A stretch of DNA of 64,000 nt from an uncultured Maritimibacter sp. Lineage in GTDB: Bacteria > Pseudomonadota > Alphaproteobacteria > Rhodobacterales > Rhodobacteraceae. Below the pieces are notes generated by a model. It had not been told where the DNA came from. It did no database searches and saw only the letters and a list, made by a program, of their open reading frames with translations. A program made the position numbers and the translations under genes. The DNA is taken from assembly GCF_937129605.1 (NCBI RefSeq), contig NZ_CAKZNN010000007.1. The stretch is one strand, 5' to 3'. Below are positions 56,392-64,000 of this stretch, one piece after another. Numbering within the stretch: position 1 is the first letter of the stretch; each line of letters starts with the position of its first letter.

Positions 56392-58137
56392 ATGCGCACA
56401 TTGTCCACATCCGTGGCGGCGCTCGCCGCTACGGGATTGCTGTCTACTGCCCTCTGGGCCGACCCAGCCACGCCGGAACGCCTTGTCAATGCCGGGACCG
56501 ATGCCGAAGCCGCCAACTGGCTCACGGTCCACCGCACCTATGACAGCCACCGCTATTCGCCGCTGGACGAGATCACGCCGGAAAACGCCTCCGGCCTGAA
56601 ACTGGCCTTCGCCGTACCGCTGGGCGGAACCGAACCGTCGGCCTTCGGCGCAGGCGCGATGGAAACGACGCCGCTCGTCAAGGACGGCAAGATGTATGTC
56701 ACCGACCCCTGGGGCACCACGTACAAGATCGACGTTTCGACGGGCACCCGGGGCCAGATCGAGTGGATCTGCGATACCGCGATCGACAAGGACCCCTCCC
56801 TCGGGATCCTGCTCGCCAACCGGGGCGTGGCGCTGTCGGGCGATGTTGTCATATCCAATCTTCCTGACGGCCGTGTGGTGGCCTGCGACGATGCCTCGGG
56901 CGACATCGTGTGGGAACAGCAGACCGCCGATCAGCCGGGCGAAGGCTTTACGGGTGCGCCACTTGCCGTTGGGGACAAGGTCATTGTCGGCCAGTCCTAT
57001 GGCGACTGGGCCACACGGGGCTGGATCGCCGCCCTCGACGCGGCGACAGGTGAGGAAGTCTGGCGCTTCTACACCGTGCCGGAACCGGGTCAGCCCGGCT
57101 CGGAGACCTGGCTGTGCGAAGAAACGGGCAATCCCGATTGCTGGAAGACCGGCGGGGCCGCTGCCTGGGTGACCGGATCCTACGACCCGGAATCGAACAC
57201 ATTGATCTATGGTACGGGCAACCCCGTGCCGATGTTCGACCCGGAGTATCGCCCGGGCGATAACCTCTATTCCAACTCCGCCATTGCGCTCGACGCCGAT
57301 ACCGGCGAATTGAAATGGCACTTCCAGTATACGCCCGGCGACTACTTCGATTATGACGAAGTCGGCATTCACCTGCTGATCGACAAGGAAATCGACGGCG
57401 AAATGCGCAAGGTCGTGGGGCACTTCGGTCGAAACGGGTTCTTCTACAACCTCGATCGCACCAACGGGTCCTTCATCAACGCCGGCCAGTATGTCGAGAG
57501 GCTCAACTGGACCGACGGCGTCGATCCCAAGACAGGAAAGCCGCTGAATTACGACCCGAACGCAACGCTCCAGGCCTATGCGCAAGACGTCGTGCTGCGT
57601 CGTGACGGAGGGCCCGTCGAAAACTGTCCACACCTTCAAGGTGGCATCAACTTCTGGCCGACCGCCTATAACCCCGCGACCGGCATGGCCTATGGCCATT
57701 CGATCGAAGGCTGCTCGGAGTTGTCGACTGTTCCCGTCGCGCCCGAAGACGTGATGCAGGGCGCAATCTTCACCGGCGGCTCCAATGCTGATTCCGGCGA
57801 AATCGACGGCTCGATCGTTCAACTCGACGTCGCCACAGGTCAGGTCGTCAAGAAAGAGATGCGCGAGTATCCCGGTTATGCCGGCGTCCTGCTCTCGGGT
57901 GATCTGGTCTGGGTCGGCGAGCTGGACGGCACCTTCGGCGCCTACGATGCCGAAACGCTGGAACAGGTCTGGTCCACCAACCTGGGTGGGTCCTTCAAGG
58001 CACCGGCGATGACCTACGCGGTCGACGGCAAGCAGTATGTCGCCATTGTTTCAGGTCCCCTCGGCACTGGCTCCTTTGGCCATCCAGACATCGAACAGAC
58101 GCAGGGCGCCAACATGCTCTACGTCTTCTCGCTCTGA
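56392..58137 (+). CDS. Periplasmic PQQ-dependent dehydrogenase (methanol/ethanol family, divergent)
   Basis: Signal peptide; RYSPLDEI, ETTP, NRG, RGWIAALDAATGEEVWRF, GSYDP, GTGNP, FDYD, GRNGFFY.LDRTNG, YAVDGKQYV. Confidence 0.93.
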   Translation: MRTLSTSVAALAATGLLSTALWADPATPERLVNAGTDAEAANWLTVHRTYDSHRYSPLDEITPENASGLKLAFAVPLGGTEPSAFGAGAMETTPLVKDGKMYVTDPWGTTYKIDVSTGTRGQIEWICDTAIDKDPSLGILLANRGVALSGDVVISNLPDGRVVACDDASGDIVWEQQTADQPGEGFTGAPLAVGDKVIVGQSYGDWATRGWIAALDAATGEEVWRFYTVPEPGQPGSETWLCEETGNPDCWKTGGAAAWVTGSYDPESNTLIYGTGNPVPMFDPEYRPGDNLYSNSAIALDADTGELKWHFQYTPGDYFDYDEVGIHLLIDKEIDGEMRKVVGHFGRNGFFYNLDRTNGSFINAGQYVERLNWTDGVDPKTGKPLNYDPNATLQAYAQDVVLRRDGGPVENCPHLQGGINFWPTAYNPATGMAYGHSIEGCSELSTVPVAPEDVMQGAIFTGGSNADSGEIDGSIVQLDVATGQVVKKEMREYPGYAGVLLSGDLVWVGELDGTFGAYDAETLEQVWSTNLGGSFKAPAMTYAVDGKQYVAIVSGPLGTGSFGHPDIEQTQGANMLYVFSL

Positions 58138-58240: not shown

Positions 58241-58762
58241 ATGAAGGCACGAACCACCCTCACCGCCGCGGCCAGCCTCGGCCTCGCGCTTCTCACCGCA
58301 CCGCTCATGGCGCAGGACGCCACGTTCAACCCTGAAGACTACGACATCGCGCGCGGCAAGGAGGTGTTCGAGCGCATCGGCGTCTGCGTTCAGTGCCACG
58401 GCTGGGACGGCAACGGCATGGGCCGCAACCCGCGTTCGGTCGGGATCGCGCCGAACCTGCGCGAGTTTCCCGATGATGCCGAGCTGCTGCACGAAGTCAT
58501 TGCCTGCGGTCGGCCTTACACCGAAATGCCGTATCACGACCGCAATGCCTATTCGGATGGCCGGTGCTACGACATGACGCTCGACGACTTCGAGGAGGGC
58601 GATGCGCCGTCGCGCGGGAAATCCATTCGTGACGACGATATCGACAACCTCGTGGCCTATATGCTCACCGACGTGATCGGCGCTGGTGAAACCACGCTCG
58701 AGCAATGCGAAAAATTCTTTGAGCCGGGTCACCGCAACTGCGCGCCGCTGGCCAACAGGTAA
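58241..58762 (+). CDS. Periplasmic monoheme cytochrome c
   Basis: Signal peptide; CVQCH heme motif, APNL, TEMP (candidate distal Met), DDDIDNLVAYM. Confidence 0.88.
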   Translation: MKARTTLTAAASLGLALLTAPLMAQDATFNPEDYDIARGKEVFERIGVCVQCHGWDGNGMGRNPRSVGIAPNLREFPDDAELLHEVIACGRPYTEMPYHDRNAYSDGRCYDMTLDDFEEGDAPSRGKSIRDDDIDNLVAYMLTDVIGAGETTLEQCEKFFEPGHRNCAPLANR

Positions 58763-58765
58763 GCC

Positions 58766-59539
58766 ATGCGGACCGCGATCACACCCATGCTCCTCGCGGC
58801 GCTTGCCGCCGGGGGCGTTCTGGCCAGCGGGGGCGCCATGGCGCAGGACCGGGACCGGTCCGCGCTCGAAGCACCCTTCGACATCTGGGATGCGCAACTG
58901 GGCGCGCCGGTGTCGATCATCCCTGCCGTGGATGTGAACGAACTGGCCTGCGGCACGAACGGCGGCCCCTATTCGCTGCCCTTGAGCGAACCTACCGACT
59001 TCATGTCCTGCCCGCCCGAAGCATCGGGCTTGCGTGAAGTCCATTTTTCCTACGACGACGAACTGGACTACGTCGCCCGCGCGATGGAGTCCGAATACGC
59101 CGTACTGCAAGACGGGACGACGGTGTTTTCCCACAAGGTCATGGTCTCGGTGCTCGTCAGCGAAGACGGCATCATCGAGGGTATCCGTATCCTGACCGAC
59201 CCCCGCATCCCCGCCCGCGAACGTCGCCGCGCCGTGACGCTCATGCGCAATCTGGAGGCCCGCTACGGTGACTGGACCCTCGCCTGCGAGGACATGCCGC
59301 TTGCGGAAGGCGAGATGATGATCGGCAACGTCTTTACCAAACGGGTCTGCACGGGGGTCTCACCCGAGGGCGACACCCACCTGCGCCTTGATGCGCGCTA
59401 TCTGCGCAAGGCCGGGCAACAGGCGGTGAACCCGGAAACCCGCGAACTCAATTCCACCTATTTCGAAAGTTTCTCGCGCCTCGAAATGGTGCGCGCACCC
59501 TACGAACCGACGCCGCCGCCCGTGAGGGCGACGCGATGA
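58766..59539 (+). CDS. Hypothetical secreted protein
   Basis: Signal peptide ending AMA; four Cys; 3 bp after the cytochrome stop. Confidence 0.75.
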   Translation: MRTAITPMLLAALAAGGVLASGGAMAQDRDRSALEAPFDIWDAQLGAPVSIIPAVDVNELACGTNGGPYSLPLSEPTDFMSCPPEASGLREVHFSYDDELDYVARAMESEYAVLQDGTTVFSHKVMVSVLVSEDGIIEGIRILTDPRIPARERRRAVTLMRNLEARYGDWTLACEDMPLAEGEMMIGNVFTKRVCTGVSPEGDTHLRLDARYLRKAGQQAVNPETRELNSTYFESFSRLEMVRAPYEPTPPPVRATR

Positions 59540-59541
59540 CC

Positions 59542-60303
59542 CTATTCGCTGTAGGTGCCGTCCGCATTGAAGGTGCGCGTGACGCGGGCCCCCTCCATCA
59601 CCGCGCCCCGCATATTTGCGCGCGAGAACCGGCTCTCGCTGATCTGCGCCCCGGTGAAGTTGGTGTCGCGCAGGTCGGTGCCCCAGAAGTCGGTGTATTC
59701 GATCGTCGCACCCTCGAAGTCCGCCTTGACCGCGTCGCTTTTCACCATCGAGACATAGGACATGGTGACCCCGGCAAAGCTCGACCGGCCAAAGCTCGCC
59801 TCGCTCATGCCCGTGTTGTGAAACGTGGCGCCGGACAGGTCCGCGTTGTTCACCCGTGCCGCTGTCAGATGGGCGTTGTCGATCCGCGCCCCTGCCAGCA
59901 CCGCGCTGGTCATTCGGCTGTGCTGCATCCGCGCCCCGTTGAGGTTGGCCCCGGCGAAGTTCGCCGCGGACAGTTGTGCCTCGTAGAACAATGCAGCGGA
60001 CAGGTCGGCCCCGGTGAAATCGGCCTGGCGCAGTTCCGCGACATTGAAATTCGCGTCGACCGCGGTGACATCGACAAAGATCGTGCCGTTCAGGATCGCC
60101 CGATGAAACCGTGCGCCGGTCAGGTCGGCGCCGGTCAGATCGACGCCCGACAGGTCGGCCTTCTTGAAATTCGCGTAGGCAAGGTCGCAGCCCCGGCATT
60201 CGGTCCGCGAGCCATCGCGAAGCGCCGCAACGATTGCTGGGTCGGCGCCGGCCCAAACGGGGGTGGCGGTGAGGGCTGTGATGACGGCGGTTACGATGCG
60301 CAT
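59542..60303 (-). CDS. Secreted pentapeptide-repeat protein (PedD-like)
   Basis: Signal peptide, CRGCDL cap, many A(D/N)LxG/ANF repeats. Confidence 0.92.
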   Translation of the reverse strand: MRIVTAVITALTATPVWAGADPAIVAALRDGSRTECRGCDLAYANFKKADLSGVDLTGADLTGARFHRAILNGTIFVDVTAVDANFNVAELRQADFTGADLSAALFYEAQLSAANFAGANLNGARMQHSRMTSAVLAGARIDNAHLTAARVNNADLSGATFHNTGMSEASFGRSSFAGVTMSYVSMVKSDAVKADFEGATIEYTDFWGTDLRDTNFTGAQISESRFSRANMRGAVMEGARVTRTFNADGTYSE

Positions 60304-60338: not shown

Positions 60339-60863
60339 ATGATCCCGGCCAAATCCAGCATTTTATCTTTTATAATCATAATGTTATCTGCGCCCTCCGC
60401 GCCCGCGGAAGATATGCGCCAAGACGCCGACGTCGTGACCGGCGAGGCCGAGATCCTTGACGCCGACGTGATCAAGATTGGCCCGCAGCGCGTGATCCTC
60501 TGGGGCGTGGACGCGCCGGAGCGGAACCAGTCCTGCTACAAGGACGGCGAACGCTGGGGCTGCGCGGATGCCGCAAAGCGCACGCTCGAACTGCTCGCGG
60601 GCCGCGGCGAAGTGACCTGTTTTCTCACTGGCGAAGCCGACCCCTTTGGCCGCCGCTACGGCGTCTGCGAAAGCGGCGGCGACGCGATCAATGAAGAGAT
60701 GGTGCGCCGCGGCATGGCGCTGGCCTATCTCGACCAGTCCCAAGATTACATCGACGCCCAGATGGACGCGATCACCGACGAAGTGGGCCTATGGGAGGTC
60801 GGCGTCGAGTTCGAGGAACCCTGGAAATTCCGCCTGCAAAACACACCCGGAGGCTTCCGTTGA
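60339..60863 (+). CDS. Secreted thermonuclease (SNase)-fold protein, probably lacking a catalytic Arg
   Basis: LDADVI, GVDAPE, DPFGR, INEEMVRRGMA, GLW motifs. Confidence 0.85.
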   Translation: MIPAKSSILSFIIIMLSAPSAPAEDMRQDADVVTGEAEILDADVIKIGPQRVILWGVDAPERNQSCYKDGERWGCADAAKRTLELLAGRGEVTCFLTGEADPFGRRYGVCESGGDAINEEMVRRGMALAYLDQSQDYIDAQMDAITDEVGLWEVGVEFEEPWKFRLQNTPGGFR

Positions 60864-61609
60864 GCGACCAGAGCATGGACGACCGTTCCCCCCTTGCCGC
60901 GCGTCTCGTCGGCAACCGCGCCTATGACGACCTGTTTCGCTGGGTGCTGCTCATGGCGCTCATCTGTCTGGGGGCCGTGATCCTGTGGGATTACGGCTAT
61001 CTCGCCTATCTCATTGACAACGACACCTCGGGCATCTCGACGCTGATCATCGCGATCTTCGGGGCCGCGAGTCTTTACTGCCTATGGTTCCTTTTCGACC
61101 TGTCCGGCGAGTTGTCGGCGCTCGCCCGCGTGATGAAGGGGCTCGAGGATGGCGGTGTGCCCGACATGGCCACGGCGGTGGACAAGCTGCGCAACCGCCG
61201 CCGCGTGGCACGGATCGTGAGCGATCTGAATACCATGCGCGTGACGACCGCCGGGTCGCCCGAAACGGTGTTGCAGGCCTTTGCCTCGGAACTGCGTGGC
61301 CCGGTGCGGCTGGGCGTGTTCATCTCGGACACGCTCTACAAACTCGGCCTCCTTGGAACGGTGATCGGGTTCATCCTCATGCTCGTCTCGATGCGCGATC
61401 TGGGCGAGTTCGACGTGGAAACCATGCGCTCGGCGCTGCAAAGCATGACCGGCGGCATGGCCGTCGCGCTCCTGACCACGATCACGGGCCTTTCCGCAGG
61501 TGTTCTCCTGCGGATGCAGTTCAACGTGCTCGACAGCCTCGCGCTTCGGATCACCCAGACTCTCGTGCGGTTTTCCGAGGTCGTGCTGCCCGCGGTCACG
61601 AGGGACTAG
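60860..61609 (+). CDS. MotA/TolQ/ExbB proton-channel family protein
   Basis: LGLLGTVIGF and GMAVALLTTITGL helices plus two N-terminal TMs; TTG 60860 overlaps the previous stop (alternative ATG 60875). Confidence 0.85.
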   Translation: MSDQSMDDRSPLAARLVGNRAYDDLFRWVLLMALICLGAVILWDYGYLAYLIDNDTSGISTLIIAIFGAASLYCLWFLFDLSGELSALARVMKGLEDGGVPDMATAVDKLRNRRRVARIVSDLNTMRVTTAGSPETVLQAFASELRGPVRLGVFISDTLYKLGLLGTVIGFILMLVSMRDLGEFDVETMRSALQSMTGGMAVALLTTITGLSAGVLLRMQFNVLDSLALRITQTLVRFSEVVLPAVTRD

Positions 61610-61612
61610 CAG

Positions 61613-62272
61613 ATGTTCGAGGACATCCGGGACGGTGACTACGACGCCTTTACCGACCTGCTGTTCAACGCACTGGTGGGGTTTGCCTTCATGTTCTTCA
61701 TCGCCTTCGCGATGATCAATCCCGTGGCCGAAGAGGGCAAGATCGACACCGAGGTCGAGATCCTGATCACTGTGCGTTGGCCCGATGGCCACGAGGACGA
61801 CATCGACGTCTATGTCGAGGACCCGGTGGGCAACATTGTCTGGTATCACGAACGCGAGGCGGGACTCATGCATCTGGACCGCGACGACCGGGGGCAGTTC
61901 AAGGACGTGCTTCTCGTGAACGGGGCCGAGATCGAGAACCCGCTCAATCAGGAAACCGTGTCGGTGCGGGGCCTAATGAACGGTGAATACGTGGTCAACG
62001 TGGTGCATTTCATCGCGACCTCGACCGATCCGGTGCGGGTGACGGTCAAGGTCGAAAAGATGAACCCCTCGGTGCGCGTGGTCTACTACGGTGAAACCGA
62101 CCTGACCGGCACCGGGGAAGAGGTGACGACCGTCCGCTTCACGCTCGACGACGACGAGATCATCGACCTCAACAACCGGCCCAAATCGCTCGTCGCGCTC
62201 ACCCGGCAGACCAAGACCAACACGCCCGGCGGTGATATGTCGCTCGGGTCGGGGGAGGTCGTGCGGCAATGA
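61613..62272 (+). CDS. Single-TM protein with membrane-proximal Asp (atypical ExbD/MotB-like partner)
   Basis: AFTDLLFNALVGFAFMFFIAFAMI, then a beta-rich periplasmic domain with DDIDVYVEDP and LDRDDRG. Confidence 0.7.
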   Translation: MFEDIRDGDYDAFTDLLFNALVGFAFMFFIAFAMINPVAEEGKIDTEVEILITVRWPDGHEDDIDVYVEDPVGNIVWYHEREAGLMHLDRDDRGQFKDVLLVNGAEIENPLNQETVSVRGLMNGEYVVNVVHFIATSTDPVRVTVKVEKMNPSVRVVYYGETDLTGTGEEVTTVRFTLDDDEIIDLNNRPKSLVALTRQTKTNTPGGDMSLGSGEVVRQ

Positions 62273-62847
62273 CCCAGACGATCATCACGCTCACGGTAGG
62301 CTATGCCCTCGTCGCCGTCCTCGTCGCGCTCGTCGTGCTTCAGGCGCGGTTTCACTGGCTGATCAAGGGCGGGCTGACGCTGGCGCTCGCGGCGCTTCTG
62401 TTCCTGACCTATCAGGGCGTCGGCAAACTGCGCGGCCTGCCGTCGGATACGAACCCGCCCGAGCGTTTCCGGCTCTACTGGGCGCAGATCGAGGAGCCGG
62501 ACAAGCTCACGGGTGACCCCGGTGCGATCTTTCTGTGGCTGGGCGAGCTTGACGCGGATTACTACCCCGTCGGCCAGCCCCGCGCACACCGCCTGCCCTA
62601 TTCCGACGAACTGGCCGCGCTGGTCCTAGAAGCACAGGCCAAGGTGGCCAAGGGCGAGGATATCGCGGGCGAGGTGTCCGAGGACGAGGCGGAAGAGGAC
62701 CCGGCCGAGACCCTGGCGGAAGAGGCGATGGAGGAGGCCGAACAGGGCAATTCGTCGCGCATTGGCACGCGGGTTCTGAGTTTCGACTTCGGCAATCTGC
62801 GGTTCGACACGACGCCCGCGCCGGTCACGCCGGAAAAGGACAACTAG
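62269..62847 (+). CDS. Hypothetical membrane-anchored protein with an acidic linker
   Basis: Two N-terminal TMs; EVSEDEAEEDPAETLAEEAMEEAE stretch; ATGA overlap with the previous gene. Confidence 0.72.
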   Translation: MTQTIITLTVGYALVAVLVALVVLQARFHWLIKGGLTLALAALLFLTYQGVGKLRGLPSDTNPPERFRLYWAQIEEPDKLTGDPGAIFLWLGELDADYYPVGQPRAHRLPYSDELAALVLEAQAKVAKGEDIAGEVSEDEAEEDPAETLAEEAMEEAEQGNSSRIGTRVLSFDFGNLRFDTTPAPVTPEKDN

Positions 62848-63572
62848 CCGGTGAGGCGGGAGTAAGCGTCCACCAGATCGACGGCCCCGCTCTGGTCGAT
62901 CAGCGCGGCGGGCGATCCGGTGGCGACCACGCGCCCCTTCACCAGCATGATCACGTCATCGGCGCGCTCGACCTCGTCCACCAGATGCGTGGCCCAAAGA
63001 ACCGCGACGGAATTGCCGGCGGCAAGCCGGTGAATGTCCTCGACCAGCGCGCGCCGCGAGGGCGTATCCAGCCCGGCGGACGGTTCATCCATGATGATGA
63101 GGTCCGGATCATTGATAAGCGCGCGCGCGATCTCGACCTTGCGCTGCTGCCCGCCCGACAGATTGCGCACCGGACGCTTGAGCAGATCAGCGAGGCCAAA
63201 TTGCTCGGCCAGCGCCTCGATCCGTTCATCGAGCGCACGTCCGCCCAGCCCAAACAGCCGCCCGTGAAACCGCAGGTTCGCCCGAATCGACATATCGAGG
63301 TCCACGGACCGCGCCTGAAACACGACCCCCATGCGGCGGCGAATGTCGGACCCGGCGTCACGATGGGTCATGCCGAACACCTCGACCGCCCCCGCGTCCG
63401 GCGCAAAAAGCCCCGCGATGATCTGGAAAAGCGTCGACTTGCCCGCACCATTGGGACCGAGCAGCCCCACGAACCGCCCCGGCGCGATCCTGAGCGACAC
63501 GCCGTCAAGCGCCGTGACGGCGCCGTAACGCTTGACCACATCCTGCATTTCCAGCACCGGCGTTTCGGTCAT
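62844..63572 (-). CDS. ABC ATPase of the PQQ-alcohol-dehydrogenase-associated type
   Basis: LLGPNGAGKSTLF, GVVFQ..DLDMS..NLRFHG, RKVEIARAL, VLWATHLVDE. Confidence 0.82.
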   Translation of the reverse strand: MTETPVLEMQDVVKRYGAVTALDGVSLRIAPGRFVGLLGPNGAGKSTLFQIIAGLFAPDAGAVEVFGMTHRDAGSDIRRRMGVVFQARSVDLDMSIRANLRFHGRLFGLGGRALDERIEALAEQFGLADLLKRPVRNLSGGQQRKVEIARALINDPDLIIMDEPSAGLDTPSRRALVEDIHRLAAGNSVAVLWATHLVDEVERADDVIMLVKGRVVATGSPAALIDQSGAVDLVDAYSRLTG

Positions 63573-64000
63573 TCTTCCCCCACCATGCGCTGGGCTTCCT
63601 CGCGCACCCAAGTCTCGTCGCGCAGGTCGCGGGCGACGCCCAGGCGCCGGTCCTCGACGACCTCCACCGGCCGACCATCCAGCACCACGACCCGATCCGC
63701 AAGCCGCGCGGCATCCTCGGGATCATGCGTGACGAGGATCACTGTGGGCCGGTAGGTGCGGATCACCCTTGCGATAAGCCCGGATAAGTCGCGGGCGAGT
63801 TTCCGGTCAATCGAGACGAAAGGCTCGTCGAGGATCAAGAGCCCGGGCTTCACGGCGAGCGCCCGGGCCAGCGCCACCCGGCGCTGCATCCCTCCCGACA
63901 ACTCGCCCGGCAGGGCATCCTCGTAGCCCGCGAGCCCCATCTCGACCAAGAGCTTGCGCGCCCCCGGCGCGTCGATGTTGTCCGAAATGATGGTCAGATT
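63569..64000 (-). CDS. NitT/TauT-type ABC ATPase, 3' part (5' end outside the window)
   Basis: PGELSGGMQRRVALARAL, ILDEPFVSID, VTHDPEDAARLADRVVVL. Confidence 0.85.
   Translation of the reverse strand, partial: NLTIISDNIDAPGARKLLVEMGLAGYEDALPGELSGGMQRRVALARALAVKPGLLILDEPFVSIDRKLARDLSGLIARVIRTYRPTVILVTHDPEDAARLADRVVVLDGRPVEVVEDRRLGVARDLRDETWVREEAQRMVGEE

Follow-up and report, generated by a model that had tools for sequence, protein, structure and literature searches.

To our knowledge, ion-driven motors of the MotA/ExbB type have only a handful of outputs, namely flagellar rotation, Ton uptake, Tol-Pal, gliding with the type IX secretion system (T9SS), and Zorya. The question considered here is whether three same-strand, coupled genes at positions 60860-62847 of a 64,000-nucleotide stretch of DNA from an uncultured Maritimibacter sp. 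(contig NZ_CAKZNN010000007.1 of assembly GCF_937129605.1; the whole stretch is hereafter referred to as the window) encode one of these motors or another kind. The three genes, taken from the open reading frame list of the window and called A, B, and C (the trio), are as follows.

60860..61609, + strand: A, MotA/ExbB/TolQ-family channel subunit, 249 aa from the TTG at 60860 or 244 aa from the in-frame ATG at 60875
61613..62272, + strand: B, 219 aa, partner with a single transmembrane (TM) helix and a predicted periplasmic beta-sandwich
62269..62847, + strand: C, 192 aa, predicted two-TM protein with an acidic linker

We lean toward the answer that A, B, and C probably form one inner-membrane complex and represent a distinct, unnamed family of MotA/ExbB-type ion-driven motors with a Tol/Ton-like force transducer. 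Judged from sequence, A is a recognizable member of the superfamily and B and C are new protein families; what we infer from the material below is how many copies of each subunit assemble, how they sit in the membrane, whether B binds Ca, what C does, and which physiological task results.

The three-gene unit in bacteria and phages

The coupling of the genes is tight. A GGAGG Shine-Dalgarno sequence lies 6 nt 5' of the TTG start of A at 60860, and this TTG overlaps the TGA stop of an upstream SNase-like gene (TTGA). The gap between A and B is 3 bp, and B and C overlap by 4 bp (ATGA), an overlap also seen in most of 85 bacterial loci. Across those loci B and C are adjacent in all 85 and A accompanies them in 83, the two misses being contig ends. 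Homologues of B form more than 2,100 clusters at 90% identity (1,646 representatives at 50%), and when one genome per species is scanned B is carried by at least 555 genomes, with the best 80 carriers coming from Rhodobacterales, Devosia, Hyphomicrobiaceae, Geminicoccales, Pelagibacteraceae, SAR86, other Pseudomonadales, and one Myxococcota bin.

The same arrangement is found in viruses. IMG/VR holds 375 viral contigs with a relative of B, and the A-B-C order is kept in 78 of the best 80, where the neighbors include terminase, head protease, late sigma factor, and gp46/47-like nuclease genes. Since B has many homologues and the order and coupling of the trio are kept in bacterial and viral loci, A, B, and C are real genes and not chance open reading frames (ORFs). 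The trio is a mobile module abundant in phages, and it is autonomous, as phages carry it alone. A tree of B from the best 80 of each collection splits 81 bacterial from 82 viral sequences by one branch (SH-aLRT 99.5).

Among cultured Rhizobium and Sinorhizobium phages, 29 records have the trio, including temperate phage 16-3 (p039-p041) and the T4-like RHph_N34. T4-like phages have it beside a late-transcription sigma factor gene and genes for gp47/gp46-like exonucleases (RHph_N34, locus L087, 3444-4933; loci L176/L177, 7359-9131). In phage 16-3 (locus L086, 3705-5132), the B homologue p040, with 178 aa, is preceded by the 96-aa p039 and followed by small ORFs; p039 has no Pfam match and is an unconfirmed candidate for a minimal A.

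The subunits A, B, and C

The channel subunit is the part of the trio with a clear family. A matches the Pfam model MotA_ExbB (PF01618) over its last two TM helices with 40.4 bits, where the cut-off is 22.9 (E 3e-10), and the SAR86 and phage copies of A also lie above this cut-off. Four hydrophobic helices and the motifs LGLLGTVIGF and GMAVALLTT are present; the initial annotation had called A a MotA/TolQ/ExbB subunit on the strength of these two motifs, and with both in place and the Pfam match above cut-off, A is by sequence a member of that family. The two residues of most interest in the last two helices are given below.

61358-61360, + strand: Thr167 of A, in the last two TM helices
61478-61480, + strand: Thr207 of A, in the last two TM helices

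Both threonines are invariant in 157 copies of A (78 bacterial and 79 viral) and occupy what we take to be the positions of the ion-path-lining threonines in ExbB and TolQ. The last two TM helices of A also align to ExbB and TolQ of the same genome (GLLGTV.G, ALLTT..G), at 28% identity in the case of ExbB. The length of the TM2-TM3 loop varies widely, from ~85 aa in the window to ~55 aa in SAR86 and ~15-20 aa in most viral copies, and it is almost nil in Rhizobium phage RHph_N34; the A of T4-like phages has only 148-190 aa in total. In phages this cytoplasmic loop goes down from ~85 aa to ~0, yet B and C keep their predicted periplasmic parts; the output of the motor would therefore lie in the membrane or the periplasm.

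The best sub-threshold named matches of A are ZorA models, and its best match among PDB sequences is 8vvn, an unnamed 696-aa protein with a MotA/TolQ/ExbB domain. These matches raise the explanation of a defense or superinfection-exclusion system of the Zorya kind, in which the trio would be a MotAB-like envelope sensor acting with the periplasmic SNase-fold nuclease and phages would use it to exclude rivals. The frequency of the trio in phages and the SNase-fold gene translationally coupled upstream of it in Alphaproteobacteria are in line with this idea. However, the ZorA matches, at 23.9 bits, are far below the cut-off of 100 and confined to the shared channel helices, A has no long cytoplasmic tail (phage A is almost without a cytoplasmic part), PADLOC returned nothing for B, C, or the SNase-like protein, and the SNase-fold gene is missing from the gamma-type (SAR86-type) and viral trio loci. 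The fixed synteny with a metabolic gene and the very high conservation across classes are likewise unlike defense genes, and we regard a Zorya-kind function as very unlikely.

B would supply the other part of the ion-conducting core, and its candidate key residue is located as follows.

61655-61657, + strand: Asp15 of B, in AFTDLL, at the cytoplasmic end of the predicted helix 11-34

The N-terminal helix reads AFTD15LLFN, and its Asp, part of a short F-x-D-hydrophobic motif, aligns with the Asp of TolR (PFVDVMLV) and ExbD (PMIDVVFL) of the same genome. Asp15 is present in 134 of 163 copies of B, comprising all 82 viral and 52 of 81 bacterial ones, and it is kept in the clade of the window and in every gamma-type copy. 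The initial annotation had set Asp15 beside the critical membrane Asp of known motors and had made its reading depend on conservation in homologues; this expectation holds for the viral copies and for most of the bacterial ones, and it fails in one alphaproteobacterial subclade. The subclade consists of Devosia and several Rhodobacterales (loci L012, L014, L016-L034, L040, L042, L046; positions 15 and 22 of B and 220 of A), in which B has Ala or Ser at 15 and has gained Lys22. In 20 of 25 of its members Gln220 of A, at the cytoplasmic end of TM4, has become Glu, and the loss of Asp15 together with Lys22 in B and Glu220 in A gives the impression that a carboxylate has moved from one subunit to the other. 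With the B helix packed against TM4 of A, as in known motors, one would expect such a move. The paired change of B (D15A/K22) and A (Q220E) is consistent with a contact between these two helices and is the sole, indirect hint at a 5:2 assembly of A and B.

The periplasmic part of B is where the trio departs from the familiar partners. Structures were modeled with AlphaFold2 (AF2) as single chains, and the model of B (91-sequence alignment) has a predicted local distance difference test (pLDDT) score of 88.5, with the helix 11-34, a beta-sandwich, and a short helix 193-203.

61760-62173, + strand: predicted periplasmic beta-sandwich of B in the AF2 model, residues 50-187

This domain holds the motifs EDDIDVYVEDP and LDRDDRG. 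Over 163 copies W56, D63, D65, R90, D91, D92, G94, E114, R119, and G124 are invariant or nearly so, and in the acidic cluster D63, D65, D91, D92, and E114 are invariant in bacterial and viral copies, with D98 in 159 of 163. B is also the most conserved protein of its gene cluster, with 55-59% identity between alpha and gamma versions, as compared to 27-40% for A and C and 32-34% for the neighboring pyrroloquinoline quinone (PQQ) dehydrogenase.

None of the searches placed the B of the window in a described family. It has no significant Pfam match (only E >= 0.06) and no NCBIfam or PADLOC match, the ExbD/TolR model PF02472 does not match it even at E <= 1, and the OmpA-like domain PF00691 was not found by Pfam or NCBIfam, the AF2 fold being a beta-sandwich. 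A Pfam scan of the 91 family members gave weak ExbD matches in three (best 0.005) and weak matches to the PPC domain PF04151 in 13 (best 1.1e-5), the B of the window being without one. Foldseek of the B model against the PDB found no fold match at E < 0.01 and no PPC, ExbD, or TolR fold; the wider Foldseek comparison (B with PDB and viral structures, C with the PDB) returned nothing informative, the best hit being DUF4425 at a TM-score of 0.46, and PHROGs and PADLOC gave nothing for B and C beyond one weak PHROG of unknown function. The profile searches and the lack of a PDB fold match thus bear out the earlier statement that B is of neither the ExbD nor the OmpA type.

One UniRef entry does label a homologue of B as 'biopolymer transporter ExbD', and this label and the three weak ExbD matches are what would be expected if the trio were an ordinary ExbBD-TonB or TolQRA paralogue overlooked by automated annotation. 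We consider that extremely unlikely, given that B is without the ExbD/TolR periplasmic fold, C is without the TonB_C and TolA domains, A with its four TMs and small loop is unlike ExbB and TolQ of its own genome, and canonical Ton and Tol operons are found elsewhere in that genome.

A further weak similarity came from comparing the B family profile to PDB sequences, where the C-terminal jelly roll of the archaeal protease Tk-SP was reached at E ~0.1 through the common motifs tLyWd..sDLDLYLyDPnGn and GtWtIkV. The Tk-SP jelly-roll domain binds two Ca2+ (PMC3599501). We read the domain of B as a putative divergent PPC-type jelly roll with a Ca-type acidic site that probably binds Ca; the proposal in the initial annotation that this Asp-rich domain binds metal gains from the resemblance to Ca-binding PPC/jelly-roll domains, a resemblance that is itself weak.

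C completes the unit, and its parts can be listed from the AF2 model and a 51-sequence alignment.

Residues 2-25 and 30-55 of C, + strand: predicted TM hairpin
Residues 56-136 of C, + strand: conserved small domain
62677-62796, + strand: acidic low-complexity linker of C, residues 137-176
62797-62844, + strand: C-terminal motif F..F...P..(L/T)P.K of C, residues 177-192

In the AF2 model (pLDDT 82), two TM helices are followed by a sheet of three strands plus a helix, then by a disordered acidic region, and at the end by a short strand. The alignment contains the conserved segment G-W/L-P...P..F...W..EPDK..G.IFLW..LD..P.G.PRAY.LPY, a variable linker, and an invariant C-terminal (L/T)P.K with F.F before it. 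Viral copies have the same layout, with a linker rich in G, E, and K and the ending F..LPP..LP.K, and the third gene of RHph_N34 is a shortened homologue of C (hhalign 80%, E 1.4e-5). Near the hairpin the sole conserved basic residue is in the loop between the helices, and by the positive-inside rule the soluble part of C would therefore be in the periplasm. No family match was found for C in Pfam or NCBIfam (TonB_C and TolA domains included), and there was no PDB fold match. In its architecture of anchor, spacer, and terminal interaction element, C resembles TolA and TonB and belongs to neither family; the earlier description of the third protein as TonB/TolA-like is thus correct for the layout, in which a small domain stands between the anchor and the low-complexity linker with its conserved C-terminal motif.

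PQQ dehydrogenases and the task of the trio

The surroundings of the trio offer the best indication of what it may do in bacteria. The neighboring genes in the window are as follows, the second, third, and fourth being context genes of the alphaproteobacterial cluster.

56392..58137, + strand: divergent PQQ dehydrogenase of the methanol/ethanol family, 581 aa (Pfam PQQ 1.9e-57; TIGR03075 436 bits, cut-off 480)
58241-58762, + strand: cytochrome c (Pfam)
58766-59539, + strand: 257-aa exported protein
59542-60303, - strand: pentapeptide-repeat protein (Pfam)
60339..60863, + strand: SNase-fold protein with a signal-like N-terminal segment (Pfam SNase 5.7e-08), upstream operon member in Alphaproteobacteria
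62844..63611, - strand: ABC ATPase of the 'PQQ-dependent alcohol dehydrogenase system' type (TIGR03864 282.5 bits, cut-off 302)

A LysR regulator gene also lies upstream on the same strand. The ABC ATPase gene is convergent with C, their stop regions overlap by 4 nt (62844-62847), and no terminator-like structure was found between them. A scan for promoters and terminators gave nothing informative, and no public RNA run contains this stretch.

For the comparison of neighborhoods, 45 bacterial loci with at least 8 kb on each side were taken as full-flank loci, and in 41 of these a PQQ dehydrogenase of the methanol/ethanol family lies within 9 kb of the trio; none was found near the trio in 80 viral loci. 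Alphaproteobacteria keep the PQQ dehydrogenase, cytochrome c, 257-aa, pentapeptide, SNase-like, A, B, C, and ABC transporter genes together even where their order is rearranged (L004, L035, L036). The cytochrome c, 257-aa, and pentapeptide genes each accompany the trio in 37-43 of 80 bacterial loci, rearranged clusters included, and the SNase-fold gene adjoins it in 48 of 80; the four full-flank loci without a PQQ dehydrogenase all retain the SNase-like gene with A-B-C. In SAR86 and its relatives only A, B, C, and a convergent quinohaemoprotein alcohol dehydrogenase (ADH) of ~741 aa are conserved (27-29 of 29 loci, the next neighbor reaching 15). The trio in bacteria is tied specifically to PQQ dehydrogenases. 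One of the four full-flank exceptions, in the lineage of loci L061 and L076, has a GSDH-family soluble PQQ sugar dehydrogenase (L169, 1826-3064) ~6 kb upstream of the SNase-like gene and A-B-C, with NosR-like, DUF1800, and DUF1501 genes downstream.

The supply of PQQ bears on the meaning of this tie. No pqqC was found in the source genome (99.8% complete) by a search that gave 27 positives among 151 relatives, and the genome encodes two PQQ dehydrogenases of the methanol/ethanol family, the one in the window and, on contig C9, a canonical XoxF-like enzyme (769 bits) that has no trio beside it. Since pqqC is missing and two PQQ dehydrogenases are encoded, the organism appears to depend on external PQQ and, by gene content, to be a PQQ auxotroph. 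Elsewhere pqqC is missing in 34 of 50 trio-bearing genomes and present in 16, and none of the ~17 searched SAR86/gamma-type trio genomes has it. Of the 151 genomes of the same bacterial family, 53 have a PQQ dehydrogenase and four have B (E <= 2e-34). From these counts, and from the XoxF-like enzyme that has no trio, it follows that the trio goes with particular enzyme clades; in the family of the source organism that clade is a divergent one scoring ~420-440 bits on TIGR03075. A general role in PQQ acquisition was rejected, as 16 of 50 trio genomes have pqqC of their own and 26 of the 28 relatives with a PQQ dehydrogenase and no pqqC are without the trio, and a general part in PQQ uptake is unlikely.

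A Ton-like energizer of outer-membrane uptake is another candidate, in which PQQ, a lanthanide, or a substrate would be taken up and C would act as a TonB analogue on a receptor encoded elsewhere. The TonB/TolA-like layout of C speaks for it, as do the apparent PQQ auxotrophy of the source organism and the lack of pqqC in the searched SAR86/gamma-type genomes. On the other side, the conserved neighbors of the trio include neither a TonB-dependent receptor nor any other protein of the outer membrane, the source genome has a single TonB-dependent receptor, on another contig, along with its own ExbBD-TonB, and C has no TonB C-terminal domain. The trio genomes that have pqqC, and the PQQ auxotrophs with PQQ dehydrogenases in the family, which are mostly without the trio, argue the same way. 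We judge this explanation decidedly unlikely.

The metal sites of the partner enzymes were compared by alignment. The PQQ dehydrogenase of the window has D320-Y-D322 and is without the vicinal Cys pair, and the SAR86 partner has D-Y-T with the Cys-Cys pair present. A lanthanide-specific role was rejected, since the SAR86 partner enzyme is of the Ca type.

MxaACKL/MoxR-type proteins insert Ca into the classical methanol dehydrogenase, and the trio could be a counterpart driven by the proton-motive force (PMF), that is, a maturation or cofactor-loading machine in which B binds Ca2+ or a lanthanide and/or PQQ and the PMF is used to load apo PQQ dehydrogenase in the periplasm. This would account for the tight adjacency to the dehydrogenase gene, which survives rearrangement, for the invariant acidic cluster in what is the most conserved protein of the cluster, and for the lack of pqqC in the nearly complete source genome and in 34 of 50 trio genomes. 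It is at odds with phage trios that have no PQQ dehydrogenase, with the differing metal types of the partners, with the 26 of 28 relatives that have the enzyme and neither pqqC nor the trio, and with the second, XoxF-like enzyme that has no adjoining trio. A loading machine is in our estimate unlikely, and no single physiological output rates better than that.

The reading that we favor, a distinct MotA/ExbB-type motor with a Tol/Ton-like transducer, would work as follows. A, with its four TMs, its Thr pair, and almost no cytoplasmic domain, would form the channel-bearing ring; B would be the central subunit equivalent to ExbD, TolR, or MotB and contribute a helix with a protonatable Asp15; and A and B together would be the ion-conducting core. 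The jelly roll of B, a predicted Ca2+ binder, most likely would anchor or position the complex in the periplasm. C would be the output arm, its TM hairpin riding on A and its (L/T)PxK peptide engaging a conserved envelope partner. As in Tol and Ton, protons passing through A and B would set C in motion, and mechanical work would be done in the periplasm or the outer envelope. Phages and bacteria have no other conserved neighbor of the trio in common, and the partner would therefore be a universal envelope component or lie within the trio. A bacterial clade would have recruited the trio to a periplasmic PQQ alcohol dehydrogenase module, and the trio most likely supports that enzyme system, whether by supplying something needed across or within the envelope or by assembling the enzyme.

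Several observations weigh against this reading and should be considered together. The similarity of the B helix to TolR of the same genome is not significant (hhalign probability 2%, TM motif only). About 29 bacterial copies of B have Ala, Ser, or Val in place of Asp15, and we know of no canonical motor that can lose the Asp of its B subunit; the covariation of Asp15 with Glu220 of A that might explain the loss is essentially one lineage event on the tree, the comparison resting on two events, so that no statistics are possible. The PPC similarity is weak and missing for the B of the window itself, and Foldseek returned neither a PPC nor an ExbD fold. No outer-membrane partner is conserved near the trio in the bacterial loci compared. 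Most carriers of PQQ dehydrogenases in the same bacterial family are without the trio, including the 26 of 28 with no pqqC, and, since phages carry the trio without a PQQ dehydrogenase, the PQQ link cannot be its basic function.

A bolder version would see a new class of ion motor, in which a Ca-binding jelly roll and a tethered C-terminal peptide perform a new periplasmic task that is indispensable for particular PQQ-ADHs and that phages use to remodel the envelope; this we find somewhat unlikely. If it were true, the bacterial task could be, for example, PMF-driven loading of cofactor or metal or the positioning of the enzyme, and T4-like and other phages would exploit the trio on the envelope of the infected cell. 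The trio is in any case not rare: it is carried by at least 555 genomes at the species level, by 375 viral contigs of IMG/VR, and by cultured Rhizobium/Sinorhizobium phages. Its fixed place beside PQQ-ADHs points to an unrecognized need that these enzymes of the periplasm have in bacteria abundant in the ocean. Direct testing is open in cultured, non-pathogenic carriers such as Sinisalibacter aestuarii B-399, Maritimibacter dapengensis DP4N28-5, and Mesobacterium pallidum T40-1, and in the temperate phage 16-3, which is genetically tractable.

Comparison with known motor systems

The source genome has four MotA_ExbB paralogues, with tolQ-tolR-tolA-tolB and exbB-exbD-exbD-tonB operons located elsewhere. 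As ordinary Tol and Ton systems are present, the trio is an extra system, and the initial annotation was right to describe it as having no TonB, no OmpA domain, and no flagellar context: neither matches of this kind nor flagellar or TonB genes near the trio were found in the window. In the canonical Ton operon (locus L172, 2365-3201, on contig C7 ~30 kb beyond the window), the ExbD gene is present as two tandem copies, and the TM Asp of the first copy is replaced by Asn in the second (VIPMINVVFLLL).

A literature search found no description of the trio. A survey of MotAB evolution mentions 'generic ion transporters' with assorted DUF appendages (PMC12505986); its text contains no PQQ, PPC, or jelly roll, and the phage mentions found in it concern Zorya defense only.

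TolQ-TolR-TolA is alike in having three co-transcribed inner-membrane proteins and a channel subunit with G-T and a further T in its last two helices. TolR and most copies of B share a single TM with an Asp near the cytoplasmic end of the helix. TolA and C are each anchored in the membrane and carry, after a long linker that is flexible and charged, a conserved element for interaction at the C-terminus. Unlike the Tol proteins, A has four TMs with a minimal cytoplasmic loop, B has a PPC-like beta-sandwich in place of the TolR/ExbD fold, and C has a two-TM hairpin and a C-terminal motif of ~15 residues instead of TolA domain III. The trio also has no linked TolB or Pal, and it is found in phages and beside PQQ dehydrogenases.

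MotAB and PomAB are comparable in the four-TM topology of A and in the single-TM helix with Asp of B, which presumably would be the periplasmic anchor. They differ in their OmpA-like peptidoglycan-binding domain, their torque-generating cytoplasmic interface, and their flagellar context, all of which the trio is without, whereas the trio has a third subunit. ZorAB is likewise a MotA/ExbB-type pair outside motility and transport, with the difference that the trio is without the ZorA tail, a ZorB-type domain, and ZorC/D/E effectors and does not lie in a defense island. For the periplasmic domain, PPC/jelly-roll domains such as that of Tk-SP (PDB 3afg) share W..(D)D(V/L)D(L/V)Y(V/L).DP.GN followed by G.Y.V.V with B; the similarity is weak, and in contrast to Tk-SP the domain in B shares its chain with a motor-type TM helix and carries further acidic residues that are invariant (HLDRDD.G).

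ExbB-ExbD-TonB belongs to the same motor superfamily and follows the same three-part logic. Relative to it, B falls short of the ExbD model, C is without TonB_C, the trio has no linked TonB-dependent receptor, and A has Val where the ExbB 'WEALL' helix has Glu. Seen beside these systems, the trio would add an output module to the MotA/ExbB motors, one that combines two new partners with a channel subunit reduced to near its membrane core.

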